64,000 nucleotides of DNA from an uncultured bacterium (GCA_963729625.1 CAVSOU010000008.1:256001-320000); one strand, 5' to 3'; positions 12,670-36,257 are shown, counted from the stretch's first letter. Notes: generated from the sequence alone by a model not told the origin. Made by a program: numbers and translations.

Positions 12670-12710
12670 CAACACTAACAGGTAAATAGTTCGTTCTTAC
12701 CCATCTGTCT
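12670..12710. other. Putative att junction of the satellite
   Basis: terL reading frame loses similarity right after GKNEL and stops (FTC*); abrupt AT-rich sequence; short dyad GGTAA-N11-TTACC at 12681-12701. Confidence 0.6.
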
Positions 12711-12878
12711 GGCCATCATCACGGTAAGCGTGTCTCCCTTGCGGGAGAGCACCGCCCTGACGATGGCGCGAGCGATCTCCGCCTGGTAGGGCCGGAGCGG
12801 CCTCTTTACCACGGACTCGCTAAAGCGCACGACGTCGTCCAGCAAGACTTCGACTGATGAGGGTGTCGCGGCAGACAC
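12675..12878 (-). pseudogene. 5' fragment of a terminase large subunit, interrupted by the satellite
   Basis: AAGGAGG RBS; LRPYQ adenine-binding motif and TVMMARQMGKNEL terminase-type Walker A, then a premature stop next to the integrase promoter. Confidence 0.75.
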
Positions 12879-12978
12879 ACGGACCTCCTTTGGAGGGGGA
12901 CGTCGGGCCGGCTCGCAGCCGGCGGTGATCCTGTGAGCCGGAGCAACCGCCGTGCGGAATCAGCGCGGAGTGCGCGGA

Positions 12979-13016
12979 GAAGAAACAACGGCACCCCGGC
13001 ATGTACCGGGGTGCTG
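12979..13016 (-). terminator. Rho-independent terminator after the pilin gene
   Basis: GCACCCCGGT-AC-ATGCCGGGGTGC-type stem-loop followed by GTTGTTTCTT on the minus strand. Confidence 0.65.
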
Positions 13017-13068
13017 TGCCGCGTGAGTTTGTCGGAGCGCGAACGCCGGCGCTGCCGGCCGGCTGCGG

Positions 13069-13266
13069 TCAGATACCGTTGGCGACGTTGTTCAGCTGTG
13101 TGCTGATTGCCGGCTGCAGGAACTTGAGAGCGACGATGACCATGATGGCGATGAACGCTAGGATCAGGGCGTACTCCACCAAGCCCTGGCCTCTGTCATC
13201 GGCAAATCGTTTGGCCAAGACTTGCTGCAGGCGTTGGGTTGCCCTAACCCAGAGTTCAGTAATCAT
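13069..13266 (-). CDS. flp: Flp/type IVb pilin
   Basis: DDRG/QGLVEYALILAFIAIMVIVAL prepilin cleavage and Flp motif; GGAGG RBS. Confidence 0.92.
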   Translation of the reverse strand: MITELWVRATQRLQQVLAKRFADDRGQGLVEYALILAFIAIMVIVALKFLQPAISTQLNNVANGI

Positions 13267-13717
13267 ATCGTTCCTCCCCCCTCGGGCGTGTGCCGAGGGT
13301 ATCATCCCGGCTGAGCGGCGCCGTGTGCACGTTCACTCTGACGTTACGCGTATGGCCACGGTTGCGGGCCATGCATCTGGTATGCGTACTATAGCTAATC
13401 CGAATGGGTATTGACAGCGCCTTTTCGGAGGTGTTTATGCTCCTAATTGGCTGGTTTTTACCCGGCGTTTGGGCGGCTGCGTGCGTAGGAGCGGCAGACA
13501 CGGCGGGCAGCGAGGCGATTCGACGGGGGAACCGGATGCCTTCGAAATCGTGCCGGCGGTCGACCGATGACTGAACGTTCGCGCAACCGGCGGGCCCAGT
13601 TGCCCGAACAGTGCCCTGGCGTAGCGATTTGGACCAGCTTCGGCGTGTGCTCACGCGAGGGAGATCGCAGTAGCCGAAGCGTTCCCATGACATCGCGAGT
13701 GCAGGCCGGCCGGCAGA

Positions 13718-14095
13718 TCACCTGGTGTCTGCACGTTGCTGGATGGCTGCGGCCGCCCGTTCAAGCTCCTGTTCAAGTGCACTTTGATCCGTATCGCCGC
13801 CTGTGCCGTGAGCGCGGAGTGCCTTGACGATCAGATCGATCAGGCGCATCGTGAGCTGGACCGTGGCCGGACTCGTGCTGGTCTTCGTGCGGGTCTTCGT
13901 GCTCCGGAGCAGCAGAAAGAGGTGCAGGCGAAGCAGAGCGATTTCACCATTCAATCCGTGCTCGCTTTGCGCGCTCTCGAAGATCTCGCGCTCTTCGTCG
14001 GGCAATGCGTGGCCGTAAAAGCTCTGGCCTGAACTGCTTGGCACACGTGCTTCAGCGGCGTCCGGATGCAGCAGCTTGGGTTCCGCGCTGGTCAC
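13718..14095 (-). CDS. Putative terminase small subunit of the virion cluster
   Basis: SFYGHALPDEE...GLNGEIALLRL resembles the FY...L.DEIALLR small-terminase-like family as I recall it; AGGAGG RBS; upstream of the terL fragment. Confidence 0.55.
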   Translation of the reverse strand: MTSAEPKLLHPDAAEARVPSSSGQSFYGHALPDEEREIFESAQSEHGLNGEIALLRLHLFLLLRSTKTRTKTSTSPATVQLTMRLIDLIVKALRAHGTGGDTDQSALEQELERAAAAIQQRADTR

Positions 14096-14105
14096 GGTGT
14101 TCCTC

Positions 14106-15908
14106 CTAATCCCGCCGCCCGGACAGATACCACGATCCATCCCTCTGCTCCTGGTAAATCTCCAGTACGGCGCCTTGCATGGTCTCTACCAGGTAGTAGT
14201 AACGGTGAGTAGGCGTGGACCACCAGTTGGTACGGATGCGCCACTGGCTGCAAACCGCGCGCAGCGATTCCCAGGCGCGAGGATCGCGGCGCACGGCCGC
14301 CGGCAGTCCCGAGGCCGTGACGCGTACCTCAATGCGACTGGTGCGAAAGGTTACGAGATTGCCCGGACCATCCCAGGTTACGCGGTCCTCCGGCAGCGGC
14401 GCATCCGCGACCAGTTGAACGCGGCGGGCAGCGCGCGGGCCAAAACGCCCGCGCAGCCGATGCGCCAGCACCTCCAATCGCTCGCGCCCAGCCAGAATGG
14501 GATCGGCGCCCAGCAAAGTACCCTGCGTGGCAGCCAGGTCCAGGCCGGCAGCCTCCAAGCGCAAGCTCACCACTGGCCTGTCGGGCGCCAGCTGCACCAA
14601 GAGCTCACGTGCACGATCCAGAATAGCCGGCGCACCTGCCACGGGTTGCTTGAGATGCAGCTTGACACTCCGGCCTTCGGATCCTGGTACCCACTCGGGG
14701 GTGCGGAGCACACCACGGGGGGTCGTGTCCCCAGCACATCGCCTCGAAGTGCCTGCCGGGGTACCCCCCGAAGGGTGGGTCGTCGTGGGTCGTGGACTGA
14801 TCCCGCTACCGCGCGAACTTTCCCTATTGGATCGCGTTCCAATCGTGGTCGTCATCGCGATAGTCAGCCTGAGCACTGCCGCCGACTGCCCGCGCATCGC
14901 CAGCTTGGCGGCCAGCAGATCGGCCAGCCGCATCAGCTCGCGGTCCAGCCAGAGACCGTCCGCCGTTGCGTCTTCCAGATCGCACGCAACGTCGACCATG
15001 CTGGGCGCCGGAGGACTGACTACTGGACGTTGAGCCGCACCGCGCGCCTGCTCGTGCGCAATCCGGCCCGTCTGGCCGAAGCGACGCTGCACCGCCCTTT
15101 CCGGTAAATGGGCAAATTGCCCGGCAGTCCGAATACCAAGCGCGTGCAGGCGCTCGAGCACGCGCGGATCAAAGTCGTTGAACAGCGCGAGTGGGAGAGA
15201 CTGTAGAAATGTCTGCTCTTGCCCGTCTTGCACCTCGACCGGGTTGTCCGGAGCGGCGACTGCCGCGGCAACTGCCGCCAGGGAAGGATTGGCAGCAACG
15301 CCGATACGGGCCTGGAAGCCACGGGCAGCCAGTGAAGCGCCGATGGCCGCAGCGATGATCGCGGGCCGGCCGAACAACCGCTCGCAGCCGTGCACGTCGA
15401 GCGTCGCGCCGAAGCGTCGCGCTAGCTGCTGCTCGTTCGTGACGGCTACTTTGCGCCCGGTGGCCGCCTGAATCCATTCAGGCTCTACGTGTGGCGTGTA
15501 CCGGCCGAGCATCTCCAGCACCTCCTGCGCGGCGGCGTCGATGGCCGCCGGATTGGCGGGCAGCGTCAGGGCATGCGGGCACAGTTTCTCGGCCGCTCGC
15601 AAGGTCATCCCTGCCAGAACACCCTCGGCGCGCGCGGCAGGCGAAGCGGCCAGGACAGCGCGCCACCCACTCTGGGGGGTCCCCGGCTGCGCATCGCCGC
15701 CCACGATCAGCGCAGCACCACCTAATTCCGGCCGGTCACGCAGCACCAGGGCCGCGGCAAAATCGTCGATCCGTATGGAGATAATGCTGGGCTCGCGCTC
15801 CGCACCCGCATTTGGAGCGCGCACGACCTGCAGCCGGTCAGGTGCGGGTATGCGCCGACCGGCGGTTGTGGATGCCAGGCTCCTGGCAGTCGCATCACGC
15901 TCAGCCAT
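14106..15908 (-). CDS. Y-family polymerase-like protein (ImuB-like, likely inactive) with a DUF6504-like C-terminus
   Basis: RPELGGAALIVGG, ASPAARAEGVLAGMTLRAAEKLCP, LGIRTAGQFA. Catalytic D-x-D-x-FY and SIDE motifs are degenerate (IRIDDFAA; no SIDE). C-terminus QWRIRTNWW...YYLVET...WYL. Confidence 0.8.
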   Translation of the reverse strand: MAERDATARSLASTTAGRRIPAPDRLQVVRAPNAGAEREPSIISIRIDDFAAALVLRDRPELGGAALIVGGDAQPGTPQSGWRAVLAASPAARAEGVLAGMTLRAAEKLCPHALTLPANPAAIDAAAQEVLEMLGRYTPHVEPEWIQAATGRKVAVTNEQQLARRFGATLDVHGCERLFGRPAIIAAAIGASLAARGFQARIGVAANPSLAAVAAAVAAPDNPVEVQDGQEQTFLQSLPLALFNDFDPRVLERLHALGIRTAGQFAHLPERAVQRRFGQTGRIAHEQARGAAQRPVVSPPAPSMVDVACDLEDATADGLWLDRELMRLADLLAAKLAMRGQSAAVLRLTIAMTTTIGTRSNRESSRGSGISPRPTTTHPSGGTPAGTSRRCAGDTTPRGVLRTPEWVPGSEGRSVKLHLKQPVAGAPAILDRARELLVQLAPDRPVVSLRLEAAGLDLAATQGTLLGADPILAGRERLEVLAHRLRGRFGPRAARRVQLVADAPLPEDRVTWDGPGNLVTFRTSRIEVRVTASGLPAAVRRDPRAWESLRAVCSQWRIRTNWWSTPTHRYYYLVETMQGAVLEIYQEQRDGSWYLSGRRD

Positions 15909-16473
15909 GCTGCCCTCCGCGAGCTTCGCCGGTGGCTCGCCGCGCGCGTACTCGGTCGTTGAGGTGCAGGCGATACCGTTCCACGATCGGGATCGGCATG
16001 CTCGCCTGCTCGAACAGCGGGCAATGCGCCAGGTCGTGATCGTCTTGCGGCGGAATGCGGCGGCGCACGAAGGCGGACGCGCTGATTGGACTCTGCCAAC
16101 ACTGGTTCATGCACCGCAACATCAGCAGATGAATCAAGCCGCGCCGGCCGTCGATCGCCGCGATGGCGATTTCCTCCACGTAGCGGCACCACAGGCATCG
16201 TGCCCTGGCTACATACTCCGCATCTGTTGGGTGAAAGTGGAGCCGGAGTGCGGCTGTATAGCTAGGCGAAGCCGTGTCGGTCCAGCAGACTTCCAGCGGG
16301 CACGTCATGCCAAGGCAGCCAGTATAGGTGTGGTTTGTCTTGATACAGGGATACCAGCGTGTGGAACTCTGTTCCCGTATCGGCACGGTGAAAGGCAGCC
16401 GTGGCCCTTCCTCGACGTGAAAGCCGTAGGCGCTCTTCAGCCCCAAAGCCTTGGCGAGTGCCGTCTCATCCAT
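15901..16473 (-). CDS. Cys-rich hypothetical protein
   Basis: 190 aa, overlaps the polymerase start; several Cys including CLWC. Confidence 0.5.
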   Translation of the reverse strand: MDETALAKALGLKSAYGFHVEEGPRLPFTVPIREQSSTRWYPCIKTNHTYTGCLGMTCPLEVCWTDTASPSYTAALRLHFHPTDAEYVARARCLWCRYVEEIAIAAIDGRRGLIHLLMLRCMNQCWQSPISASAFVRRRIPPQDDHDLAHCPLFEQASMPIPIVERYRLHLNDRVRARRATGEARGGQHG

Positions 16474-16479
16474 CCGTCG

Positions 16480-18459
16480 TCACATTCCTTCACAGCTCAG
16501 CTGCAGCTCATACTGCGAGGACCGCGCATCCACCGTCAGCCGCAGCCCCACGATCCGGCACGATAACCCCGGCAAAATGCTGTCGGTCAGAGCCACCGCG
16601 TCATACAGCTCTAACGCCGGGTTCGGCCCCACCGTCAGCTGCACCTGCGTCGCCAGCCGCTGCTCACGCGCCAGCGCGAATTGCGCCGCATACACCGCCC
16701 CGCCCGCCGTCGTCGCCAGCTGCTCTACCACCAGCGCGTATCGCTCACGCCCCGTCGCCGCCAGGTCCGCGCTGTCCCATACCTCGGCCACCGCCGCCGC
16801 GATCTTGGTCGGCCCGCGCACCGCTACCCGGTTCGCCCGGTCGCCGTCCACGCCCACCTGCAGCGCCTCCGCCTCCACGCCGTAGCTCCATACCGTCGCC
16901 TGGCTCGCACTCTTGCCGATCACGTCCAGCCAGTCTACCGCCGCGAAGGCCACGCCCGGCGCCGGCACCACCCGCACCCGCCAGGCCCCCGCCCAGGCAC
17001 GCAGCATCCGCTGCATGGCCAGCGTGTAGGTCTCGCCGGCCACCAGCTGGTAGGTCGTTACGATCTGGTTGAACTGCTGCGACCCGTCGATCGTCGAGGC
17101 CCGCTCGAACCCCGCCTGCGCCGCCAGGTCGAACACGATGTCAATAATCTGCCTGGACGCGTAGGAGAGCGGCACGCATGTCTCATACTCCAGACACCAG
17201 GACGCGTCCAGGGCCACGATCGCGATCTCGCTCACGTCCACCGCACGCGCGAAGGTCCACGATTCCACGTAGAAGAGGTGCGTCGGTATGAGACCGGCGC
17301 CCACGAAACCCTGGCTGAGCAGGATCTGGGCCCGCACTTTCAGCGCTGCCAGGCCGCTGTATTGCCCCGCGCTGTTGTCCAGCGTCGCCGTCAGCGTGGC
17401 CGGCTTGCCCTCCGCCTCTACGACCTCAAGCCGCAGCAGATCCGCCGTCAGGTCGCGGTAGTCCGTCGCCGGGTCGTAGCTCGGCGCGAACAGCACCGCC
17501 TCCAGGCCCGCGAGCACCTGGCCCAGCGCGTGCTGCAGCCAGACCGCCCCACACGTCACCGCCGTCCCCGGCGACGCCGTGCCGGCCGTCCAGTGCACGA
17601 AGTCCGCTGAGCTGGCACGCACCAGTCGCGCATACGGCACGCCATCCACGGCGCCGGAGTCCTGCTCGACCCATGTCAGCCGGTAGAGCCCGCCCCAGTG
17701 CGTCAGGTGCGGATAGGCCGCATAGATGCCCGTCGCCAGCAGCAGCGTCTGCAGCGGCGTGAGCACCGACCAGGCCGGAGCGCCGCCATATACGTACGTG
17801 CAGCTCACCAGCCTGCTTGGCGAGCCCGCCGCCTGCCAGCCGGCCAGCACCACGCTGTAGCTGCCGTCCACGTTGCGCACGGCGTCGATGCCCACCACCT
17901 GGCCCCAGTCCCCGTTCGTCCAGTCGAGGCCCGACCACGTGCCGGCCAGATGCCAGGCGGCCGGCCGCGCCACGCCCGTCCCCGGGTTGTAGGCGAGAAG
18001 GACCGTGCCCAGGTCGCCGTCGCCCGCCAGGCCCCAGCAGGCGTGAGCAGGGTCGAAGAGGACGGCCGTCGCGCCCCAGCTCACCCCGCTGTCCGTCGAG
18101 TCCGTCGCGCACACCTGCGTGGTGCTCGTCTTCTGCCACAGCACGCGCACCGTCGCCCCGGCCACGATGCAGCAGCAGCCGGCCTGCAGCCGCGCGTCGC
18201 TCGTCAAAAACGTCCAGGCGTTCCATAGCACCACGTCGGACGGGTCCGTGACCCGAATGATGTAGAGCCCGCTCGACAGCACGCAGGCAGCCACGAGTGC
18301 CCCGTCCGGGGCAATGCAGGCGCTGGTCCGCGAGGCGGTTTCGCCCAGGGCGCGCACCACCGCGAAGTGCGGCGCCGCGTCCGCCAGCTCCAGCCGCACA
18401 TCCGGCGGGGATCCGAACGTCTGGGCCGCCGCAGTCAGATAGGGAGAAAGCGTCCTCAT
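16480..18459 (-). CDS. Phage tail/baseplate-hub-like protein
   Basis: Starts MRTLSPYL (ATGA overlap); propeller-like N-terminus; LTATLDNSAGQY and PNPALELYDAV motifs typical of tail hub proteins. Confidence 0.65.
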   Translation of the reverse strand: MRTLSPYLTAAAQTFGSPPDVRLELADAAPHFAVVRALGETASRTSACIAPDGALVAACVLSSGLYIIRVTDPSDVVLWNAWTFLTSDARLQAGCCCIVAGATVRVLWQKTSTTQVCATDSTDSGVSWGATAVLFDPAHACWGLAGDGDLGTVLLAYNPGTGVARPAAWHLAGTWSGLDWTNGDWGQVVGIDAVRNVDGSYSVVLAGWQAAGSPSRLVSCTYVYGGAPAWSVLTPLQTLLLATGIYAAYPHLTHWGGLYRLTWVEQDSGAVDGVPYARLVRASSADFVHWTAGTASPGTAVTCGAVWLQHALGQVLAGLEAVLFAPSYDPATDYRDLTADLLRLEVVEAEGKPATLTATLDNSAGQYSGLAALKVRAQILLSQGFVGAGLIPTHLFYVESWTFARAVDVSEIAIVALDASWCLEYETCVPLSYASRQIIDIVFDLAAQAGFERASTIDGSQQFNQIVTTYQLVAGETYTLAMQRMLRAWAGAWRVRVVPAPGVAFAAVDWLDVIGKSASQATVWSYGVEAEALQVGVDGDRANRVAVRGPTKIAAAVAEVWDSADLAATGRERYALVVEQLATTAGGAVYAAQFALAREQRLATQVQLTVGPNPALELYDAVALTDSILPGLSCRIVGLRLTVDARSSQYELQLSCEGM

Positions 18460-18674
18460 GCCGGACCCCCACTCGGGTGGGTACCCGGTGCCCGGTCCCC
18501 GGTCCCCGCCGCGGCGATCGCGTTCCGCCGCACGAGCTCGTCGATCGCCTCCAGCAGCAGCATCGCCAATCCGGTCAGCCGCTGATCGTGCGCGTGGTCC
18601 TTCACCAGGTCGATCACCGTGGCGCGAATAATCCCGCACTCCTCATCGCTGAACACCCGCAACGCCTCCGCCAT
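18456..18674 (-). CDS. Small hypothetical protein
   Basis: Translationally coupled on both sides (TGATG and ATGA). Confidence 0.55.
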   Translation of the reverse strand: MAEALRVFSDEECGIIRATVIDLVKDHAHDQRLTGLAMLLLEAIDELVRRNAIAAAGTGDRAPGTHPSGGPA

Positions 18675-19084
18675 CACGCCTCCACCAGGATGACGTTCAT
18701 GTGGTAGCTCACCCCGGTCACTTGCGTCCGCGGGTCCACCACGTGCTCTTCGTAGCTGTCGAAATGCACCTGCCAGACACTGGCGTCCACGTCCGTGAAG
18801 GCGAGCTGGGTGTTCACCTTGGCGTAGCTCGCCGCCAGAGCGTCGCGTATGGCCTTGCCCTGCACCGCCAACAGCTGGCCACTGTAGTCCGTCAGCTGCG
18901 TCAGCCCCAGGATCGCCAGGTGCCACTCGCGCTTGCCCGGGCCCGCATCGACGTACCGCTCGGACCCACCCTTGGCCACGGTCGCCCTGCGCAGCCGCGG
19001 CTGCTTCATCACGTGCCCGGACGGCGCCAGCATGTACCCGGACCCGTCCAGGATGATCTGGCAATCCACTCCCTGCGTCGCCAT
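18674..19084 (-). CDS. Putative tail (distal-tail-like) protein
   Basis: 136 aa beta-rich protein coupled between adaptor and hub genes; function inferred from position. Confidence 0.5.
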   Translation of the reverse strand: MATQGVDCQIILDGSGYMLAPSGHVMKQPRLRRATVAKGGSERYVDAGPGKREWHLAILGLTQLTDYSGQLLAVQGKAIRDALAASYAKVNTQLAFTDVDASVWQVHFDSYEEHVVDPRTQVTGVSYHMNVILVEA

Positions 19085-20184: not shown

Positions 20185-20567
20185 TAGCGCATCCTCCTCA
20201 GCTCCAGCAACCAGCGATCCAGCGCCAGGCCCACCTTGCGATAGCTCAAGACCTCCAGCTTGATCGCCGCCGCCACGCTCGCATCGTCGATCGCCCCGTC
20301 CGTCAGCGCGAGGTAGGCAATCGGCCGCGGGTCCACGTCCACCGGCAGCTCCGCCAGGTACTCATTGATCGTCTTCTCCGTCTGGTCGCGCACCAGCGGG
20401 TCGGCACTATCCACCTGCTTGAGCACGATCTGCACGCTCACCGCCTGAAAACCGCCGTAAGCCGTGCGGTAGACGGCCGCCACGCCGATCGACCGGCCCA
20501 GGCGCATCGTCACCCGGTTCGCCGCGATGTGCGCCAGCTTGCTCGCGTTCAGCGGCGTCAGTGCCAT
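20184..20567 (-). CDS. Putative head-closure protein
   Basis: 127 aa, TAATG coupling to the adaptor gene; function inferred from position. Confidence 0.45.
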   Translation of the reverse strand: MALTPLNASKLAHIAANRVTMRLGRSIGVAAVYRTAYGGFQAVSVQIVLKQVDSADPLVRDQTEKTINEYLAELPVDVDPRPIAYLALTDGAIDDASVAAAIKLEVLSYRKVGLALDRWLLELRRMR

Positions 20568-28031: not shown

Positions 28032-30458
28032 TCAGTTGTTCCCCAGGTAGAAGCCGCGGTAATCGGCCACCGCGCCGCCGTACTCGTGCCGCACCTTGTA
28101 CGTGATCATGTCGTTCGTGAAGTTGTTGCCGAACAGCGGCTGGTCCTGGATGAACAGCTGCGGATTCATCTGCCCGCCCACGAACCCGATCTCGATCGTG
28201 TCGATCACCCGCGGGTCCGCCACCAGCGCCCAGTATGTCGCGCTGGAAATCTGTGGCGCCACCATCACTTCGCAGTAGCCCAGCATCGGGTTGATGTCGT
28301 TGTAGCTGCCGCCCGGCGCGCCGGCCGACTTCGTGACCACCATCGCCGTCCACTCCAGCTCCGGCGGCACGATCAGGAAGCGCGGCTTGAGGCCGATCGG
28401 CTTGCTCGCCGCGTTCAGCTGCCGCCGCATCGCCGTCACCGCCGTCTGCATGGCACTGCTCGCCAGCGCCGTCCCCTGGTTCGCCGTGCCCAGGTTGGCC
28501 GTGGCGATGCCCGTGTTCACATGGTGCGTGATGTCGAACAGCTTGTATGAGTCGTAGATCGCGCTGCCGTTCGCCGCCAGCATCGTATACACGAACTCCG
28601 CCAAGGTGAAGGCCGCGGCCACCGCCAGCTTGCCCGGTATCTGCTTGATCGCGTAGAGGTCGTCATTGATGATCGTCTCGCGCGAGACCGACACCAGGTT
28701 GCCGCGCTTGGTCGGCGTATACGTGGCCTGCGTGTCCGACAGCGTGGCGTTCACATACGGCCCGTCCTCCGCCACCGTGGCCAGCGCCCCAAAAGCCCCC
28801 AGACGCACCCGCGTCTGCAGCTTGAAATCCTTGATCGGCGTCACCGTGCAGAACTTCTGCCACTCGGACGGCCATGCCTGGTAGTCCTTCAACAGCCGCT
28901 TGTTCATGCTGGTGCCCAGCAGGTAGCTGAAGGTGCTGGTAATCACCTCGTTCGCTTCCTGCAGCCGCACGGGGTCCGACACGCCGGTGATCGCGAAATC
29001 CTTGGTCGCCACCGTGTAGGCTTCACGAATGCCGGAGAGCGCCGGCACCTTCTCGCCTTCCTGCATGTCGAATAGCTGGTCGAACGCCTTCTGCAGCCGG
29101 TCGGCTTCCGTCATGGTCACGCTGATGTGCTTCTCGTAGCCCATGCCCCGGATCAGCCCGCCGGCCGTCAGCTCCGCCAGCACCGCGCGTTCCTCGTCGA
29201 TCGCCGCCGTCAGGTCCGCTTCCTGCACCACCTGCCCGGCGAAGCGCCGCGCCAGGCGCGCCTTGACCGCCGCCGGCAGTTCGCTCTTGCCCAGCGCGGT
29301 CTCCACCAGCCGCTCGCTTGCGAATACCGCGCGCTCCTGCCGCACCTGCTCCAGCAATCGCGCCACATCATCAGCCGCGCTGCCAGCCTCCCCTTCGCGA
29401 ATCACCTGGCTCGCGGCGACCACCTGTGCCGGCGGCGCCACCGGAGCCACCGTAGACGGCCCTTCGCCGCCGCCCGCCACCTGAGCGCTGCCAGTCTGCA
29501 CCACGTACGTCCCTCCCAACTGCACCTCACCGCCAGGAATCGCCTGGCCGATACTCGGACCCAGCTGCACCGGATTGATCTGCCCCGCCGGCACGGGTCG
29601 CTGTTGCGCCACGATCGACGCCCCGCCGGCAATCGCCTGCCGCGCCAACATCGCAGCCTCTTCGTTCAGCGGCTCGCACTGGTCCCACCAGGATTGCTTA
29701 TCCGCCTCCAGAATCTTCTCGAAGCTGCCGCCTGCCGAGGCCCTGGTGATCACATCCACACTGGCCAGACTGGTGATGTGCTCCACAATCCGGGCCCGCT
29801 TGCCGCCCACCTGTCCCTCGGCCACCTTGGCCTGCACGTCGATGGAGAGGCCGACCAGGTCGGTCCCTTCCTCCACGGACTCTTGAATCAGCGACCACAG
29901 CCAGTCCTGACTCTTGGAAATGCGCAAGGTGGCGCGCACCTCGCCGTCCTGCCCAACGCGAACCTTCTTGTAGCTGCCGGCCAGGTCGCGCACGCTGCGC
30001 AGCGTGGCGTCGGAATGATCGACGTAGGCGCGCGCCCCCTCGAACAACGGCACCGCCTCGGAGAGGCACTCGGGGCCGTAAAAATTCCCGTTCCGGCTCA
30101 GGCCCGGCCGGATGCACACCACCTCCACTTCCCGCTTATCCGTGGGCCCCAACGCACCCTCACGCAGGCTGATGCCAAAACGTATCCGCGACTCCATCAG
30201 CAGTCGATCCCCTCCTCCCGGCCAGTCCATGCCTTCGCTCTTGTACAGTGCGCGCAGCGCCTTGCCCGCCTCTTCCCGACCGGGCCCTTCGTACCGGTTG
30301 CCTCGATGGCCGCCAGGCGAGAACAGGGCGGCATAGGCCGCGCCCATCAGACCGTGGTCCGGCTTCCCATCCCGCCTCACGCGCAGGTGCCACGTGGACG
30401 GCTTCTCCGGGTCCTCCACCACCAGATAGTCCGCCGCGCCACCCGCATCCTCAGCCAC
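28032..30458 (-). CDS. Fused prohead protease - scaffold - major capsid protein (Mu gpT-like, HK97 fold)
   Basis: Protease motifs GLSRNGNFY, AYVDH, VGLSID, SVDVITRASAGG; capsid motifs TSTFSYLLGTSMNKRLL, SRETIINDDL, PRFLIVPPELE, KVRHEYGG. Confidence 0.9.
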   Translation of the reverse strand: MAEDAGGAADYLVVEDPEKPSTWHLRVRRDGKPDHGLMGAAYAALFSPGGHRGNRYEGPGREEAGKALRALYKSEGMDWPGGGDRLLMESRIRFGISLREGALGPTDKREVEVVCIRPGLSRNGNFYGPECLSEAVPLFEGARAYVDHSDATLRSVRDLAGSYKKVRVGQDGEVRATLRISKSQDWLWSLIQESVEEGTDLVGLSIDVQAKVAEGQVGGKRARIVEHITSLASVDVITRASAGGSFEKILEADKQSWWDQCEPLNEEAAMLARQAIAGGASIVAQQRPVPAGQINPVQLGPSIGQAIPGGEVQLGGTYVVQTGSAQVAGGGEGPSTVAPVAPPAQVVAASQVIREGEAGSAADDVARLLEQVRQERAVFASERLVETALGKSELPAAVKARLARRFAGQVVQEADLTAAIDEERAVLAELTAGGLIRGMGYEKHISVTMTEADRLQKAFDQLFDMQEGEKVPALSGIREAYTVATKDFAITGVSDPVRLQEANEVITSTFSYLLGTSMNKRLLKDYQAWPSEWQKFCTVTPIKDFKLQTRVRLGAFGALATVAEDGPYVNATLSDTQATYTPTKRGNLVSVSRETIINDDLYAIKQIPGKLAVAAAFTLAEFVYTMLAANGSAIYDSYKLFDITHHVNTGIATANLGTANQGTALASSAMQTAVTAMRRQLNAASKPIGLKPRFLIVPPELEWTAMVVTKSAGAPGGSYNDINPMLGYCEVMVAPQISSATYWALVADPRVIDTIEIGFVGGQMNPQLFIQDQPLFGNNFTNDMITYKVRHEYGGAVADYRGFYLGNN

Positions 30459-30586
30459 GTAACCAGCCCTCCACCATCACCCGGCCGGTGATTGCTTCTA
30501 TTTCACTAAAGTCAATCGGATTACTTGTATATACCCCACCATCACGCGGCCGCGGCCGGTGCGCTGCGCACACACCGAGGCCCGGC

Positions 30587-31264
30587 TCACAGCCCGTTAT
30601 CCTTGCCGAAGAAGCTGCCCACCGTGGGACCCAGCCGGAACAGCGTGTCCGCGTGCTCCGCGTTCACGAACGACGTGTCGCACGCTTGCGGCAGCAGTAA
30701 CCCATCCGGCTGGCCGATCACCAATACCCGCTTGAAGCGAGCCGCGTGCGCCTGGCTGTACCCGGACGTGAGCTGGTGCCGGCTGATCCACGCCAGCACG
30801 AACGGCAGCCTGCCGGCGCCGGGCTCGCGAAACAGCACGTATAGATTACGCCGGGGTACCCGCCCGAGCGGGTCGCCGACCAGCGGCGCCCGTTCCCGGA
30901 CAGGAGAGACGCCCCGCCTCCGCGCCGCAGTCGTCGACTGTCTGTCGATGACTGCGTTTCCGTCCACGTGGTAGTCGTCCTTCCCTTCCACCACCATCGC
31001 GCCGCCAGTCCAAATCAATCCGTATTCCCCTTCCCATTCGTTCCGGGACACGCCGCACAGCCCGCAAAGATCACAATCCCGCGCGTGCCACAGGCCATCC
31101 CCGGCTTGCCAAGGCGCCCACACGTGCCCATGCTCGCCACAGATGCTTTGGATCCGCGTCAGCGACGCGCTGTAGTCCAGCCCCAGCAGCCCCACATCAC
31201 ACCCGCCCAGCAAGCACCGCCAGATCTCCTCCGGCCAGCTGCTCGACGGTGCGCCCTTCACCAC
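30587..31264 (-). CDS. Hypothetical protein with Zn-finger-like Cys/His motifs
   Basis: CGEHGHVW...RDCDLCG; overlaps the upstream stop. Confidence 0.45.
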   Translation of the reverse strand: MVKGAPSSSWPEEIWRCLLGGCDVGLLGLDYSASLTRIQSICGEHGHVWAPWQAGDGLWHARDCDLCGLCGVSRNEWEGEYGLIWTGGAMVVEGKDDYHVDGNAVIDRQSTTAARRRGVSPVRERAPLVGDPLGRVPRRNLYVLFREPGAGRLPFVLAWISRHQLTSGYSQAHAARFKRVLVIGQPDGLLLPQACDTSFVNAEHADTLFRLGPTVGSFFGKDNGL

Positions 31265-31668
31265 ACGCTCACCACCACGCCGTCAGCTGGATTCGCCGAA
31301 TCCATCAAGATCACCAGACATTGCGCGCCCGCCACCAGCAGGCCGGCGTCGATTGCCTTGTTCACCGCCAGCGGCCCCACCACATCGGCCTGCGCGCCCA
31401 ACAGCTGCACCCCCGCCGTGTTGCTGCCGGCGTCGTAGGACTGGATCACCCCCAGCTCGGACAGCTGCTCACCCAGCCGCGGGCCGGCCACCGCCCGCGA
31501 GACGGCCTTCTCCCGCGACCCGCTTGACCGTTCGCCGCGCGAGCCGGTCTCCGCGTGGCGCCTGGCGGCATGGTGCTCGACCGCCGTGTGCGTCACGCCG
31601 GCGTGGCGCGCGCTGTGCCCGCTGCCGCTGTGCCGGCTCCGCTCAATGACCTCCGCACGCGTGCTCAT
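31258..31668 (-). CDS. Hypothetical OB-fold, spike-like virion protein
   Basis: GVIQSYDAGSNTAGVQL...GAQCLVILMDSANPADGVVV resembles the OB-fold of baseplate spike proteins. Confidence 0.55.
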   Translation of the reverse strand: MSTRAEVIERSRHSGSGHSARHAGVTHTAVEHHAARRHAETGSRGERSSGSREKAVSRAVAGPRLGEQLSELGVIQSYDAGSNTAGVQLLGAQADVVGPLAVNKAIDAGLLVAGAQCLVILMDSANPADGVVVSVW

Positions 31669-31934
31669 CGCGTCCCCCCGCACACCGAGCGTGCCGCGTG
31701 GCACGTGCCCACGTATTCCCGGCTGCGGTCCCACTGCACCATGCCGCGGTCCACGAGCCCGTTCACGAGCCGCACCAGCCGTTCCCAGTACAGGTGCGTG
31801 TCCGATGCCAGGTACCAGAAGCCCATCGGCGCGTGGTGCGCGTGCTCCCAGTCACGCACGGCGCGGATCACAGCCAGGTCCTCCGCCGTCGGCGTCCAGG
31901 GTAGGGGTTCGACTTCGACAAGCATCCTCACCAC
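31665..31934 (-). CDS. Winged-helix protein resembling a LexA DNA-binding domain
   Basis: TAEDLAVIRAVRDWEHAHHAP...LVNGLVDRGMVQWD. Confidence 0.5.
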   Translation of the reverse strand: MVRMLVEVEPLPWTPTAEDLAVIRAVRDWEHAHHAPMGFWYLASDTHLYWERLVRLVNGLVDRGMVQWDRSREYVGTCHAARSVCGGTR

Positions 31935-32245
31935 GGATCACTCCTTGCCCGCCGGCGGGTACCCGTGGGCCGCAGCCGGCACAGCACGGCCCGCACGCAC
32001 CCGCCGCTCGCGAACCCCAGGTACGCGGCGATGCGATCGGCAGTCCATCCCTGCCGCCGCAGCGCCGCCGCCTCATCCAGCCGTTTGCCACGCCAGTTGT
32101 CCTGCCTGCCGTCCCAGATCTGCCTGCCGATCGTGGCGCGGCTGAACCCCAGCCGCCTGCCGATCTCGCCGTGGGTAAACCCCTGCCGCCGCAGCCGCAG
32201 GGCCTCACACCGATCGCCGGCAGAAAAGCTCCGCTCCCCTGACAT
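31928..32245 (-). CDS. Tandem helix-turn-helix protein
   Basis: ALRLRRQGFTHGEIGRRLGFSRATI and AALRRQGWTADRIAAYLG. Confidence 0.65.
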   Translation of the reverse strand: MSGERSFSAGDRCEALRLRRQGFTHGEIGRRLGFSRATIGRQIWDGRQDNWRGKRLDEAAALRRQGWTADRIAAYLGFASGGCVRAVLCRLRPTGTRRRARSDPW

Positions 32246-32342
32246 CCTCACATCTCCTCAGACCACGAGCTCACGCCGGCCGCGCCGGCGGTCCCGGCGC
32301 CATCTGCTCCCATCGGCGGCAGCCGGAGGTGCGAAGCACACT

Positions 32343-32388
32343 CCGGGTACCCGGAGACCCACCAGAGTGGGTGATAGCGGGTGGCCGC
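32343..32388. repeat. REP-like palindrome
   Basis: CCGGGTACCCGGAGACCCACCAGAGTGGGTGATAGCGGGTGGCCGC. Confidence 0.8.
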
Positions 32389-32398
32389 AGCTCCCCCT

Positions 32399-33208
32399 TC
32401 ACGGCGACACCAGCTCCAGCGCGATCAGCTCATAGGTCAGCACGTCGCCTCGCGGCGCGGTGCCGGTGATGAACGCATAGGGCAGGAACATCCAGCCCCG
32501 CACGCCCACCCCCAGGCCCCAGCTATTCAGCACCACGAAGTGGCCGGCCGGCACGCCCGGCAGCGCCGCGTCCGCGTAGCCGCCCAGCACCATGTAGTGA
32601 CCGCCCAGCAGTTCCTCATCCGGCCCGGGCAGCGGGATGATGCCCGTCCGCAACGTCTCTGGCGCCTCAAAACTGCTCCACACCTCCAGGGCGATGCCCA
32701 CGGAATAGCCGTAGGCCAGCGCCTGCTTCACGGCGGTCACATCCTTGGGCACGCTGTACCACTGCAGGAACCTGCGCCGTTCCGCCGCCTTGAGCGCCGC
32801 GGACGTCGGCTTCTCGCCGATCAGCACCGTCGGGTAGTAGGGCCAATCCTTCTCCGGGCAGTCCCCGTACACGTTCACGGCCCTGAACACATCCACAGGG
32901 TCACGGCCCGTATCGCCCGTGTTTCCCTCCATAAAGCCGGACCAATAGTACGGGAACGAGCGGCTGCGATGGTACGGCACGCCGACGTGCTGGCGGAGCA
33001 GCTCGTACTCCATCTGGCTCGCGGCGCCATTGCAGGTGCAGGTGCCATAGCTGCCCTGGTCGAACGCCGGCAAAAACATATGCCGCAGGTCCACGCTCGC
33101 CGGCAATACGACCCCGGTGTCGTGTTCCACCTGCAGGGTGCGCAGCGGCACGCGGCCCTCGCGCAGACGATAGCCGAGTCCTCGGCCTCCGGGTGTCGCC
33201 AGTGCCAT
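32399..33208 (-). CDS. C1 (papain-like) cysteine peptidase
   Basis: VDLR...DQGSYGTC, GGHYMVLGGY and NSWG catalytic motifs. Confidence 0.9.
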   Translation of the reverse strand: MALATPGGRGLGYRLREGRVPLRTLQVEHDTGVVLPASVDLRHMFLPAFDQGSYGTCTCNGAASQMEYELLRQHVGVPYHRSRSFPYYWSGFMEGNTGDTGRDPVDVFRAVNVYGDCPEKDWPYYPTVLIGEKPTSAALKAAERRRFLQWYSVPKDVTAVKQALAYGYSVGIALEVWSSFEAPETLRTGIIPLPGPDEELLGGHYMVLGGYADAALPGVPAGHFVVLNSWGLGVGVRGWMFLPYAFITGTAPRGDVLTYELIALELVSP

Positions 33209-33261
33209 CAATCTTCCTCTTCCACCAGTAGCGGTATGGTCATCGCATCCTCCTCGCCTTC

Positions 33262-33452
33262 GATATCCCGGCGTGAACGCCGCGGGTACCCACAAGAGTG
33301 GGTGTCCTCACCGATGGCCTAGCGGTGGCCTTCAGGCAGCCTTCGCCTACATGCTTCCTGCGAGTAGTTGCGGTATGCCATGCGGCGCCGGCCCTCCTGC
33401 GACCACAGTCGCCGGGTACCGGGTACCCACAAGAGTGGGTGATAGCGGGTGA
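33262..33452. repeat. Two REP-like palindromes
   Basis: GGGTACCCACAAGAGTGGGTG at about 33284 and at 33421. Confidence 0.8.
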
Positions 33453-33522
33453 TGCTGCCATCCTTCCGCAGATGGAGGCCTCAAGCATGTAGCGGGTACC
33501 CGGTCCCCGCCGGCGGCGCGCA

Positions 33523-34323
33523 TCACGCCGCCTCCAGGTCGGCCTTGAGCAACCAGCCCGAATAGTGGCTGGTATGGCAATGGATCCAGTGCGGCGTCTG
33601 CAGCCCGTCCAGCCCCACCATCACGCCCGCCGTCAGCAGCACCACCCGGCGGCTCAGATGGTCCGGCGCCTGCTTCAGCGCGCAGTCCACCGTCGTCTTC
33701 AGCCGCGTGGCCGGCCGTCCCAATGCCCGCAACCCGTCCAGACTGCGGGCCAGCTCGTCCCCGTCCACGTCGCCGGTGATGCCCGGCACGCTGAGCGTCC
33801 AGCTGAACTGCGCCAGGGCCACATACGGCCACACGCCGATCGACGCGGGACAGGCCTCCCCCGGGCAGGCCAGCCAGAGCGGGTAGGCGGCCAGCCGCGT
33901 GTCGGTCAGCCGGTGCAGCGCCCAATCCTGATTGCTATACAGCAGTGGCCGGAAGCCCGCCGCCGCCTCGCAGGTGCGCAGGAAGGCCAGGACAAAGGCC
34001 GATTCCTCCGTGCTCCCTTCCGGCGTCTCGAAGTCGCCGGCCGCCAGGTCGCCGGGCAGCCAATCCCCTTGCCCCACCACCGTCTGCACGAAATGCGCCG
34101 CCTGCCCCGCCGCGTCGCCCAGCTCCGGTCGCGTGAAACAGTAGGCGCCGCGCACCAACCCCGCCGCCTTCGCTCCCGCCCAGTTGTACACAAACTGTGG
34201 ATCGCTGACCGACAACCCTTCCGATGCTTTGATCAGGGCAAAGCTAAAGCCATCCTCCTTCACCCGTGGCCAGTCGATCGCGCCCTGCCACAGGCTCACG
34301 TCAATCCCCTTCAGTGCGGGCAT
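33523..34323 (-). CDS. GH25 muramidase (endolysin-like) with an SH3-like tail
   Basis: GIDVSLWQGAIDW, KASEG, GAYCF, DFE, GDVDGD. Confidence 0.92.
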   Translation of the reverse strand: MPALKGIDVSLWQGAIDWPRVKEDGFSFALIKASEGLSVSDPQFVYNWAGAKAAGLVRGAYCFTRPELGDAAGQAAHFVQTVVGQGDWLPGDLAAGDFETPEGSTEESAFVLAFLRTCEAAAGFRPLLYSNQDWALHRLTDTRLAAYPLWLACPGEACPASIGVWPYVALAQFSWTLSVPGITGDVDGDELARSLDGLRALGRPATRLKTTVDCALKQAPDHLSRRVVLLTAGVMVGLDGLQTPHWIHCHTSHYSGWLLKADLEAA

Positions 34324-34370
34324 CCTGGCCCACCCCCATCCGTGGTATCTGTGTTTCAGGAACCACCACT

Positions 34371-34691
34371 CTACTCACCGCCGGCCCATCCCGGCCGCTT
34401 GGTGATCAGGCCCGCGCTGTAGACCAGCAACCCCACGATCGGGAATGCCAGCTTATCGGCGATCGTCTCGATCCACTCACGCGCCAGCAGGCTGCTAAAG
34501 CTGATTGCCGACGCCACCAGGTACAGCACGAGTCCCAGCACGACCACGGCCAGCAGCAGTACCAGCGTGTCCACCAGCCCGCGGCCCAGGAACCGCGCCG
34601 CCTCGCCCACTTGCCGTTCCGTTGTCGTCTCCGTCACCGTCGTCGCCGCCGGCTGGCTTGCCGCCGGCTTGAGCATCGTTTGATCCAGCAT
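34371..34691 (-). CDS. Holin-like membrane protein
   Basis: Two hydrophobic helices, GAAGGAG RBS, directly upstream of the lysin. Confidence 0.6.
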   Translation of the reverse strand: MLDQTMLKPAASQPAATTVTETTTERQVGEAARFLGRGLVDTLVLLLAVVVLGLVLYLVASAISFSSLLAREWIETIADKLAFPIVGLLVYSAGLITKRPGWAGGE

Positions 34692-36186
34692 CCGCGCTCA
34701 CTCCTTCCGCGTCGACACGCCCAATCTCTTCCGCCACGTCCACGTTCTGACCGGTCATGCCGAAGAACAGTCGCATCCCCGTCTCGCGGGAAATCCAGCC
34801 CGCCGCGTTCGCCGCCAGCATGGCGCTCATGATCTGGCTGCCGGCCGTGGCCAGATCCTTGTTGTCGCTCGGCACCAGCTCGGGGAAGATGATCTGGAAG
34901 CTCCGATCCGTGCCGGCGCCCAGCTTGCCCGCCTTGACCGCCTCGTCCAGTGCGCGGTCCAAAATGGCCCGCAGCATCAGGCCAAAGATGTCCTGCCGCC
35001 GCTCGAACTTGCGGAACGTCGGCAACCCCATTTCCGATGCCGTGGCCCGGTTCGTGTTGCCGCCCTCGCCGAGGTAGTGCTCGGGCAAACCGGCCCCCAT
35101 GGCGATCATCATCTTGATCGCCCGGCCGTCCTCCGCCACCTCGTCGGCGTGGATCTGCGGCTGCACCGCTGTCCAGCTCTCGCTCTCGTTATGCACCACG
35201 ATGCTGCCCGGCTCGGGCGCGTAGGCATACTGCATGCGCTTGCGATCGATCGTCTTCGCGTCCGCCCCCGCCAGCTTGATGTCCCAGAGGAAGGCGCCCT
35301 TGTACTTGTTGATGCGCACGCGGTCGGTCAGCCAATCCCGATAGCGGCGCAGCCAGGGCAAGAGTGTGGCCAGGTCGCTCTTGCCGCGCTTGGCGTTGGA
35401 CACCGAGTTGATCTTGAACTGGATCACGTCCTCACCAGCCGTGAACCACTTGCCCGCCATCACCGCGTCACCCGGGTAACTGGCGCCGGTGGGCTCCAGG
35501 GTCGGTGCCGGCGGCTGCACGCCCCCGATCGGAGCCGTGGCGCTCCACATGGCGCCGCCCGGACCGACGGGCCGCTGGTGGAAGCGGATCGTACGCTCGA
35601 TGTTGTCGGGGTCCGTCTCGATCTGGTCGATCAGGCTGGGGTCGATCTGCGCGATCTTCACCGTGCCGTTGAACCTGTTCACGAAGAAGCGGATGAACTG
35701 CTCGCCATAGAGCGAGAGCTCCGTGCAGAGCGAGTACACCCGCGTCGGCATGTGGTTGTCCGGGTCTTCCCAGAAGGCGTCGATGAGCCGCTGCACCTTT
35801 TTGTTCCGGGCCGTCACCGTCACCCCCGTGCCGAGCACGAAGTTCGTCATCAGCTCCACGATGTAGCTGGCGATGGGGTTCGCGTTGAACTGCTCGTAGC
35901 ACTGGTTATGGATTTCCAGGTACGTGCTGGGAATGACGTCCTTCTGGTACCAGTTATCCGAGAGCCGGCGCCAGTAGTAGTCCTCCTCCATGCCGGCACC
36001 CAAGCGGCCCCAGTAGTAGTCTTCCTGCATGGGGAACGTGGCATTCGCCGTCGGGTCCATTTGGCCCTCAATCAGCCGGCGCGATGCCGTGTCGTCAACC
36101 GTTCCGGCCATATTCGCCGCAATCGCGACGCCGAGACGAGTGCGGGGCGCCGCGATCGCATCTTCCTTGGCCCGTCGCGCGCCCAT
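34495..36186 (-). CDS. Phage portal protein
   Basis: NPIASYIVELMTNFVLGTG, ELSLYGEQF, RGKSDL, GAGLPEHYLGEGGNTNRATA; ATG at 36186 after GGAGG. Confidence 0.88.
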   Translation of the reverse strand: MGARRAKEDAIAAPRTRLGVAIAANMAGTVDDTASRRLIEGQMDPTANATFPMQEDYYWGRLGAGMEEDYYWRRLSDNWYQKDVIPSTYLEIHNQCYEQFNANPIASYIVELMTNFVLGTGVTVTARNKKVQRLIDAFWEDPDNHMPTRVYSLCTELSLYGEQFIRFFVNRFNGTVKIAQIDPSLIDQIETDPDNIERTIRFHQRPVGPGGAMWSATAPIGGVQPPAPTLEPTGASYPGDAVMAGKWFTAGEDVIQFKINSVSNAKRGKSDLATLLPWLRRYRDWLTDRVRINKYKGAFLWDIKLAGADAKTIDRKRMQYAYAPEPGSIVVHNESESWTAVQPQIHADEVAEDGRAIKMMIAMGAGLPEHYLGEGGNTNRATASEMGLPTFRKFERRQDIFGLMLRAILDRALDEAVKAGKLGAGTDRSFQIIFPELVPSDNKDLATAGSQIMSAMLAANAAGWISRETGMRLFFGMTGQNVDVAEEIGRVDAEGVSADAGSNDAQAGGKPAGGDDGDGDDNGTASGRGGAVPGPRAGGHAGTAAGRGRAGTRAVPGGVGNQL

Positions 36187-36202
36187 ATGACCTCCCGTTA
36201 TT

Positions 36203-36216
36203 AGTACGTATGTTCT
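36203..36216. promoter_or_regulatory. LexA (SOS) box-like operator
   Basis: AGAAC-ATAC-GTACT on the minus strand, one mismatch from the Gram-positive/Chloroflexi-type GAAC-N4-GTTC, between promoter and RBS of the portal gene. Confidence 0.75.
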
Positions 36217-36229
36217 ATTAATCAAGCCC

Positions 36230-36257
36230 AGCATAGCACGAGAATCATGCTTGTCAA
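36230..36257 (-). promoter_or_regulatory. Sigma70-type promoter of the virion operon
   Basis: TTGACA-N16-TATGCT with an extended TG. Confidence 0.75.

Follow-up and report, generated by a model that had tools for sequence, protein, structure and literature searches.

Gene transfer agents (GTAs), such as RcGTA of Rhodobacterales and the GTA of Caulobacter, and the PBSX system of Bacillus are encoded by phage-derived clusters of head, tail, and lysis genes that lack genes for integration and replication. The RcGTA genes follow the order TerS-TerL-portal-protease-capsid-...-tail, and an excess of GC is known from GTA genes. Here, we describe a cluster of likewise phage-derived head, tail, and lysis genes in an uncultured bacterium of the phylum Chloroflexota. 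The window, that is, the whole stretch of DNA analyzed (64,000 nucleotides, G000:C8:256001-320000), comes from a 5.4-Mb assembly in 21 contigs (G000), and the cluster lies at window positions 12675-36257; negative coordinates denote positions to the left of the window start on the same contig. G001 is a congener, and other G numbers denote further relatives used for comparison. The cluster lacks genes of its own for integration, replication, or lysogeny and is passed on as part of the chromosome. We consider that it is probably the G000 copy of an old virion cluster that derives from a phage and has become fixed in the chromosome, a "viriform" similar to GTAs or PBSX, with copies in many Chloroflexota and above all in Ktedonobacteria and the window's own class. 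A reading of the window from sequence alone had proposed a vertically inherited, GTA-like or short-tailed particle system rather than an active prophage; that observation stands with corrections, and its interpretation is largely borne out.

Like GTAs and PBSX, the cluster is single-copy and passed on with the chromosome; its phylogeny agrees with that of the hosts, and its genes evolve under purifying selection. As in GTAs, parts of the cluster are scattered to other loci in some lineages, and the GC content at third codon positions (GC3) of the cluster core slightly exceeds that of the flanks in 17 of 20 loci. The features by which GTAs are recognized were taken in part from three accounts (10.1101/2022.06.10.494566, PMC5026251, and PMC9632790). 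Unlike in RcGTA, the gene order is portal, capsid fusion, hub, and, in last place, the large terminase subunit (TerL); protease, scaffold, and major capsid form one fused protein, the host belongs to Chloroflexota, no tape measure was recognized, and the terminase gene of G000 is split. No sequence relationship to these systems was found, the only link being a weak fold match between a 148-aa cluster protein (p148) and the RcGTA tube. The closest cultured phage for the capsid fusion is the Mu-like siphophage Mae-JY22 of Microcystis (PP438414.1), whose 771-aa protein shows 32% identity over 86% of the query. The hub of the cluster is also predicted to be Mu gp44-like in fold. Mae-JY22 differs in possessing a tape measure as well as Gam and DUF3486 proteins, which we take to be Mu-type genes, and in its gene order; no other cluster gene matched it.

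Gene content and distribution of the cluster family

Open reading frame (ORF) calling identified about 25 ORFs of at least 84 aa between 13256 and 36234, all on the minus strand; neighboring genes overlap at 10 of the 24 junctions and are at most 24 nt apart at another 7, in agreement with the co-oriented, often coupled genes of the sequence-only reading. In transcription order, the cluster starts with the portal, a 106-aa ORF, a GH25 endolysin, a papain-like peptidase, a 107-aa helix-turn-helix (HTH) protein, and small ORFs, continues with the 808-aa capsid fusion, two small proteins, a block of GDSL-esterase proteins, a 614-aa fiber, and further small ORFs, and ends with a 366-aa adaptor-like protein, p148, a 719-aa protein (hub), a 190-aa ORF, a Y-family DNA polymerase, and two small ORFs. 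The last piece, at the left edge, is the start of TerL (about 60-85 codons). Family or fold matches were obtained for the portal, lysis, protease-capsid, adaptor, and hub proteins that had been named from sequence, and the 600-aa ORF previously taken for a terminase is the Y-family polymerase (IMS domain). Terminase in last place was correctly recognized as far as the family is concerned: many loci show the compact order portal-capsid-hub-adaptor-p148-TerL, and portal first with TerL last is therefore a family trait, of which only the 5' fragment of TerL is present here.

Family scans of the cluster ORFs detected no integrase, replicase, or sheath within 12675-36257, as had been claimed, no holin was identified in G000, and no tRNA gene was found in the 64-kb window. 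A tape measure was, as claimed, not recognized either; the tube, which had been listed among the missing parts, is represented by the predicted tube-fold protein p148. Foldseek searches with the AlphaFold2 (AF2) model of p148 yielded matches to a diffocin baseplate protein (8v3w_G, E 3e-5, TMt 0.64), to the baseplate tube proteins of Milano and Mu, and to the tail tips of lambda and T1; the match to RcGTA tube chains is weaker (E 8e-3 to 1e-2). We assign p148 a tail-tube or tube-initiator fold with moderate confidence. The 719-aa hub protein had no family match, and a sequence search of the PDB was empty; a homolog from a relative matches the tail protein family phrog_1887. It was folded as 659 residues from the second Met with a 7-row alignment from which the homologs of G013 and G005, containing internal stops, were excluded. 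The C-terminal half of the model resembles a contractile injection system spike (7aef_q, E 4.7e-12), Mu gp44 (9ki1_G and 1wru), MuSo2 (3cdd), and VgrG. The tube fold of p148 and the gp44/VgrG-type fold of the hub together suggest, with moderate confidence, that the particle has tube and hub parts of the long-tailed type. For the short-tailed particle that had also been considered, there is a weak SU10-adaptor match, yet a tube-fold protein and a hub are predicted (pLDDT 69 and 59, respectively), and no tape measure or sheath was found.

The conserved core, defined by all-against-all clustering of the ORFs of 20 loci, consists of about 12 families and comprises the portal, the protease-scaffold-capsid fusion, the adaptor, the tube-fold protein, the gp44/VgrG-type hub, and, last, a T4-type TerL. 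Around this core, the content varies. The lysis genes differ by lineage, with the GH25 lysin in G000 and holins or an amidase in relatives (a holin lies inside the cluster in two of six loci scanned). The GDSL block is missing from the G001, G003, and G004 copies; its 305-aa and 153-aa ORFs have no family match, and its two esterases together with the 614-aa fiber make three GDSL-domain tail proteins. The Y-family polymerase, missing from the G001 and G004 copies, is cargo. The 107-aa HTH protein is a candidate regulator or small terminase. The portal of the G001 copy, at the same locus, is 87% identical. Neither the cluster nor the core families of the 20 loci, which come from the class that holds Thermogemmatispora, Dictyobacter, and Ktedonobacter (hereafter, the Ktedonobacteria-type class), include integrase or replication genes. 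Among the 93 non-core ORFs in six of these loci, 46 flanking or unidentified ones were scanned, with no integrase or replication protein detected, and those in the flanks are ordinary host genes.

The capsid gene is present in 16 of 41 relatives (G000 included) and in 4 of 4 congeners; TerL is present in 21 of 41. Both tallies, as well as that for the terminase of the inserted element described below, include an unpublished genome (G018), without which the counts are 15 of 40, 20 of 40, and, for the element, 5 of 40. A scan of one genome per species recovered capsid relatives in 275 species. The 80 that were kept are nearly all Chloroflexota, mostly Ktedonobacteria, and include cultured Thermogemmatispora, Dictyobacter, Ktedonobacter racemifer, Ktedonosporobacter rubrisoli, Thermosporothrix, Tengunoibacter, and Ktedonospora. 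Four capsid contigs were labeled Acidobacteriaceae or Proteobacteria; two of these are very short, and two come from genomes placed in the window's own class. Within the Ktedonobacteria-type class, 50 of 71 genomes that are at least 90% complete carry the capsid gene, almost always at one locus, the exceptions being G101 with two loci, G080 with a pseudogene, and G043 with a frame change near the 3' end. These class tallies include unpublished G088, without which there are 49 carriers among 70 genomes and 70 of 70 in the RpoB survey, with the outcome unchanged. Portal relatives in IMG/VR number only two, on short contigs.

The hairpins that had been called REP-like (repetitive extragenic palindromic) occupy four large intergenic gaps of the cluster. 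The repeat GGGTACCCACAAGAGTGGGTG has 29 matches in the genome, 8 in the cluster, 21 elsewhere, and none in the inserted element; because it is present elsewhere in the genome too, it is indeed REP-like. Hairpins in the cluster and never in the insert fit a long residence of the cluster and a recent arrival of the insert.

Table 1. Features of the virion cluster and of the inserted element, in window coordinates
Feature	Position	Strand	Basis or remark
Portal, first cluster gene	34495..36234	-	phrog_10963 portal, E 1.9e-42; SPP1_portal, 30.5 bits
GH25 muramidase (endolysin)	33523..34323	-	Glyco_hydro_25, E 2.8e-33; phrog_291 endolysin
Papain-like peptidase, weak match	32399..33295	-	Peptidase_C1, 20.6 bits (cut-off 20.7, just missed); phrog_16701 peptidase
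107-aa HTH protein	31928..32251	-	HTH_23, E 2.5e-7; weak Terminase_5
158-aa protein, conserved core family 4	31258..31734	-	Family in 16 of 21 genomes compared
808-aa protease-scaffold-major capsid fusion	28032..30458	-	Phage_capsid_4, E 1e-42; phrog_4523 "major head and protease protein"; N-terminal phrog_15531 protease
Two small conserved virion proteins, 179 and 131 aa	27071..28027	-	Directly 3' of the capsid gene also in G001, G003, G004, and IMG/VR contigs
Accessory tail block: GDSL-esterase proteins of 408 and 443 aa, 305-aa and 153-aa ORFs	22945..26892	-	Lipase_GDSL_2; phrog_15881 tail protein
REP-like hairpin repeats	22803..22942; also 27023-27056, 27433-27502, 32342-32375, 33262-33307, 33410-33443		Repeat families D1-D3 and D6
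614-aa tail fiber, GDSL esterase with gp53-like C-terminus	20941..22785	-	Lipase_GDSL_2; Gp53-like_C, 24.0 bits (cut-off 24.9, just missed); phrog_14469 tail fiber
366-aa adaptor-like core protein	19084..20184	-	SU10_adaptor, E 5e-4 (weak); phrog_8040 head closure; family in 19 of 21 genomes compared
p148, predicted tail-tube-fold core protein	18674..19120	-	AF2 model, pLDDT 69 (13-row alignment); Foldseek
Predicted hub/central spike protein	16480..18459	-	N-terminal beta-propeller, C-terminal half gp44/gp27/VgrG-like; AF2 model, pLDDT 59
Small proteins p190, p140, and p145, interleaved with the polymerase	13256..16473	-	Conserved in G001 and G004; no family match
Y-family DNA polymerase, 600 aa	14106..15908	-	IMS, E 2.1e-22; GC3 0.72, host-like
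5' fragment of cluster TerL	12675..12938	-	Stop created by the insertion; alignments with G026 and G038 TerL
In-window part of the integrative element	1..12685	-	Whole element -2505..12685
17-bp arm TATATCATAAACAACAC	12659..12675	.	Inverted partner at -2500..-2484; perfect repeat
Large serine recombinase of the element	10910..12623 (ORF 11172-12623)	-	Resolvase, Recombinase, Zn_ribbon_recom
Primase-helicase of the element	6971..9100	-	AAA_25, E 5.6e-22; phrog_19930/906 DNA polymerase/primase
Packaging genes of the element: 182-aa TerS-like, TerL ATPase of 260 aa (2725-1943), TerL nuclease of 229 aa (1932-1243)	1243..3260	-	phrog_7579, E 2.3e-58; phrog_27743, E 4.8e-44

Two side observations concern single neighboring genes. 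A 66-aa ORF on the minus strand (window 13066-13266), located between p145 and the TerL fragment and 72% conserved in G001, contains GQGLVEYALILAFIAIMVIVAL, a candidate Flp/Fap type IVb pilin motif. In Ktedonobacteria bacterium brp13, DprA (DNA_processg_A; L145 656-2170), a protein linked to DNA uptake in other bacteria, is encoded about 5 kb upstream of the portal, in this one locus only.

Inheritance with the chromosome and selection

The cluster is found at the same locus in G000 and G001, with host synteny on both sides. On the left, synteny includes a kumamolisin-like peptidase and extends beyond it to about -19 kb; on the right, it includes an iron permease, a 525-aa gene, and genes at 52-57 kb, so that the right flank consists of ordinary host genes, as had been read from the sequence. 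Searches for direct att repeats between the outer flanks returned only chance 12-13-mers. The iron-permease contigs of G003 and G004 do not preserve this synteny and therefore offered no empty site that could be used. Across several clades, 8 of 20 loci keep the same neighbors, namely, a sigma-70 factor, an amino acid permease, a response regulator, and an unknown 565-aa protein.

Separately from this, the sigma-70 proteins beside the capsid block in L138, L143, L144, L146, L151, L153, L154, and L156 are full length (regions 1.2, 2, 3, and 4); this sigma factor may serve specifically to regulate the cluster or may just be a neighbor that has been retained. A 12-kb block at window 39710-52051, absent from the syntenic region of G001, has the look of a strain-specific island and encodes two large HTH-AAA_16-TPR (STAND/MalT-like) proteins (40179-43376, minus strand, and 44657-47767, plus strand).

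A host tree was built from RpoB of 20 of the 50 carriers, 19 of the 21 non-carriers, and G000. Several large genomes of the Ktedonobacteria type (e.g., G043, G044, G095-G097, G079, and G111) contain two full-length rpoB copies, and such genomes were avoided for this tree. Presence and absence of the capsid gene on the RpoB tree require 8 changes, compared to about 13.6 under shuffling. The non-carriers comprise two basal clades (three and eight genomes) that wholly lack the gene and eight genomes scattered singly among the carriers of the crown clade. For the 20 carriers and G000, the capsid tree has 9 of 18 splits in common with the RpoB tree (mean 0.28 and maximum 4 in 1000 label shuffles), and the patristic distances are correlated (Spearman 0.77, reached in 0 of 5000 permutations); the two trees differ at deep nodes that are weakly supported in both.

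In eight close pairs, synonymous divergence (dS) of the cluster is comparable to that of the host, for example, 0.12-0.18 against 0.10 for RpoB and 0.10-0.24 against 0.20; in another of these pairs, it is 0.42-0.85, compared to 0.37 for RpoB and 0.76-0.97 for the flanking genes. The ratio of nonsynonymous to synonymous divergence (dN/dS) in the eight pairs is 0.055-0.145 for the capsid, 0.05-0.17 for the adaptor, and 0.09-0.19 for the portal. The core GC3 tracks that of the host from 0.48 to 0.81. Between G000 and G001, dS is 0.43-0.87 in the cluster (1.05 for TerL) and 0.52-1.09 in the flanks, which fits common descent. Thus, the family is inherited with the chromosome and evolves under purifying selection in the relatives, the two checks that the sequence-only reading had put forward.

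A serine-integrase element inside the terminase gene

Elements with large serine recombinases that interrupt genes are exemplified by SPbeta in spsM and skin in sigK (PMC4191935 and PMC5025042). The left edge of the cluster is formed by a similar arrangement, with a recombinase at the edge of an element inside an ORF that precise excision would rebuild in frame. The target differs, being the Walker A codons of a terminase encoded in a phage-like cluster, and so does the sharing of one site in opposite orientations by two related integrases (57% identical) in two species; unlike in SPbeta and skin, no recombination directionality factor or developmental control was identified, and the integrase is frameshifted here.

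The cluster terminase was reconstructed from its two halves. Residues 2-59 of the G026 TerL match window 12860 to 12687 (55% identity, E 3e-15), the match of the G038 protein reaches 12938, and residues 43-492 of the G026 protein match -2470..-3795. The remainder of the gene, about 430 codons at -2506..-3798, thus lies outside the window, 15.2 kb off. A supposed 388-aa host flank gene to the left of the element (-2632..-3798) was rejected as such, since it is the 3' part of TerL; its intact homologs, of 494-590 aa, are encoded directly upstream of the portal and capsid genes in G026 and G038. The 5' fragment includes ARQMGKNEL, read as the Walker A motif, and ends with this motif followed by FTC and a stop codon whose end, at 12675, is the start coordinate of the operon in the sequence-only reading; the 3' part resumes with ...ELSAELEAYLL. 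TerL matches annotated phage terminases, including those of Bacillus phages vB_BboS-125 (E 6e-36) and BCD7 and of Thermus and Meiothermus phages; a homolog passes Pfam Terminase_6C (39.7 bits), and several TerL PHROGs match too. By these matches, the protein is a large terminase. The gene is intact in most relatives (open frames of 460-550 aa) and in G003, whose uninterrupted TerL supplies the empty attB sequence. Joining the halves at the shared GA/CT core would restore the frame (GKNEL-SAELEAYLL), so that precise excision would be predicted to restore TerL. A truncation of TerL in G015 that looked like that of G000 was rejected as the gene runs off the contig end.

The element was inserted just after the Walker A codons. 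Its 17-bp inverted repeat TATATCATAAACAACAC has only two copies in the 5.4-Mb genome, even with three mismatches allowed; these coincide with both insertion edges as defined from G001 and G003, and one lies 36 bp from the integrase start. Inverted halves of the attP arms at the element ends are expected of integration by serine integrases, and we read the repeats as the P and P' arms of a quasi-palindromic attP after integration. With a recombinase next to the att site, paired arms, and an empty site in G003 and in a metagenome contig, the insert is a serine-integrase element. The contig in question, 256 nt from a soil metagenome and about 92% identical, joins across the insert and skips exactly 15,208 bp; a freshwater-sediment run contains 99% identical pieces of both insert and flanks. 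In G001, the same TerL site is occupied by a different 16-kb integrase element, in the opposite orientation, that includes tape-measure and primase fragments. A side observation comes from G004, where contigs C359 (at its end) and C304 (at its start) both hold codons 6-41 of the part of TerL that follows attB; this is an assembly-graph fork exactly at the integrase target, and occupied and empty forms may both be present in the sample. The G000 integrase aligns with its 581-aa G001 homolog in two frames, with a shift near codon 475 consistent with one extra base near window 11205, which may be a real mutation or a single-base assembly error.

Besides the integrase and the primase-helicase, the element encodes a radical-SAM protein, a methyltransferase-like protein, and its own packaging genes. 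The two halves of its TerL are separated by a stop, followed by AAGGAG and ATG, and the terminase is naturally split into translationally coupled ORFs. Such a two-ORF TerL (an ATPase of about 250-260 aa and a nuclease of about 229 aa) recurs in IMG/VR phages (L203-L220), where the N-terminal part (TerL-N) was found in 18 contigs and was followed by the C-terminal part in 14; the two ORFs belong to PHROGs 7579 and 27743, the latter labeled "unknown function." In the one annotated contig (L205), the TerS/TerL-N/TerL-C trio precedes a portal of a different family and a major head gene. Family scans of the element ORFs revealed no capsid, portal, tail, or lysis genes, and searches with TerL-N in 40 relatives, 15 of which carry the cluster capsid, returned no close homolog (5 weak matches of 28-31% identity, best E 8e-8). 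This gene content leaves two readings of the insert, a satellite-like element or a prophage reduced by deletion. Like phage satellites (phage-inducible chromosomal islands [PICIs], cf-PICIs, and P4-like elements), it combines an integrase, a primase-helicase, and packaging genes without capsid, portal, or tail; it differs from them in having a full, split TerL and in residing not in a host gene but in the terminase gene of its putative helper.

Because the element sits inside the TerL ORF between its two halves, the integrase, the primase, and the second terminase to the left of the cluster belong to the intruder and not to the cluster. Thus, the claim of a region free of integration and replication genes holds inside the cluster, and its immediate left neighborhood, with these genes from a separate element, departs from it.

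Alternative readings and significance

If the cluster is functional, we infer that tailed, non-contractile particles would be built from the operon under host control, that TerL would fill them with DNA, and that the lysin would release them; the cargo would be host DNA because the cluster can neither replicate nor excise. In G000, entry of the element into TerL would have interrupted this system. With TerL split and the integrase of the element frameshifted, the copy as assembled probably cannot make its own terminase and, by the same token, probably cannot package DNA with its own motor.

Several observations weigh against a fixed, maintained cluster of this kind. The trees rest on one host marker and on 20 of the 50 carriers. 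Neither a tape measure nor a small terminase was recognized in the cluster, complete packaging machinery is lacking in G000 given the split TerL, and the integrase that might excise the element is shifted in frame. The cluster GC3 in G000, 0.83-0.91, lies above the host median of 0.74 and the 95th percentile of 0.83, and the codons are thus not host-like, contrary to what had been claimed. In several lineages, the portal or TerL is on the other strand or on another contig. The cluster is dispensable because 21 of the 71 genomes of the Ktedonobacteria-type class lack the capsid gene, including the eight scattered in the crown clade, one of which is very closely related to a carrier. In the window's own class, decay is evident: the G001 copy has many frame breaks and a broken capsid gene, the capsid genes of G013 and G017 are fragmented, and the hub genes of G013 and G005 contain stops. 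Because of these broken copies and a dN/dS of 0.14-0.66 against congeners, relaxed selection is suggested in this class. In the Ktedonobacteria-type class, dN/dS is lower, at about 0.05-0.2. In G000 itself, all cluster genes except TerL are open. The capsid gene of G001 contains, as a separate observation, a 47.5-kb insertion (C9:1045424-1092996, L009-L011) with SbcC- and SbcD-like genes and other ORFs.

It is unlikely that the cluster was domesticated for a purpose other than gene transfer, as a PBSX-like killing particle or as a capsid and tail supplier exploited by satellites. The esterase-bearing fibers and the VgrG-like hub with its propeller would suit an attack on the cell envelope, and the targeting of TerL by two different integrase elements, of which that of G000 brings TerS, TerL, and primase and no capsid, would suit a supplier. 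However, the portal, TerL, and the maturation protease are kept under purifying selection, which speaks for the importance of DNA packaging; the G001 element, with its tape-measure and primase fragments, has no tidy satellite gene set; the G000 integrase is frameshifted; and the TerL family of the element is normally paired with another portal family.

We regard as improbable, too, that the cluster is undomesticated, either the morphogenesis half of a temperate-phage lineage that cospeciates with the host or a set of neutrally decaying defective prophages. Such an origin would account for core genes that are all typical phage genes, for the two related IMG/VR contigs, for the broken copies in G001, G013, G017, G080, and G043, for the mosaic accessory content (the GDSL block, the polymerase, and extra ORFs in G001), and for the elevated GC3 in G000. 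It is at odds with the single-copy presence in 50 of 71 species-level genomes, with host neighbors conserved across clades, with dS equal to that of the host and dN/dS of 0.05-0.2 over speciation-scale time, with the lack, over 7-9 kb at six loci, of any module for integration, repression, or replication, and with a composition that follows each host.

It is hardly tenable that the whole segment of about 39 kb (window -2505..36270) represents a single temperate prophage, brought in by the serine recombinase, with the two modules as its arms: although both parts together would make up a full phage gene set on a single strand and the integrase lies so close to a repeat arm, the integrase module is inside the terminase ORF with the halves flanking it, the cluster TerL is uninterrupted in G003 and in the metagenome relative, the element TerL-N lacks close homologs in the 40 relatives searched, capsid carriers included, and travels with a different portal and capsid in IMG/VR, G001 has a different element at the same site in the opposite orientation, and the host REP hairpins are absent from the module. 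Two related candidates, the integrase-primase-terminase block as the missing half of a prophage and as a prophage arm inverted relative to G001, were both dropped because the supposed 388-aa flank gene is the 3' part of TerL.

Returning to the chromosomally fixed, GTA- or PBSX-like virion cluster, a more far-reaching version of this interpretation is doubtful, though worth stating: Ktedonobacteria and related Chloroflexota may possess a working GTA-like system of independent origin together with a family of serine-integrase elements specialized on the Walker A codons of TerL, which would silence packaging by the host and act either as GTA-hijacking satellites, with their own TerS and TerL directing the element into the particles, or as an excision-dependent on/off switch. 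The portion of the literature that our search covered contained no GTA-like system in Ktedonobacteria or Chloroflexota, and few independently evolved GTA-like systems are known. The conservation of the cluster in cultured Thermogemmatispora, Dictyobacter, Ktedonobacter, Ktedonosporobacter, Thermosporothrix, and Tengunoibacter makes the system amenable to bench tests. If active, it would allow genes to be exchanged within a phylum of soil and geothermal habitats that is known for large, mosaic genomes. Integrase elements that target TerL represent a new kind of conflict or control, with an att site located in the packaging motor gene of a domesticated virus.

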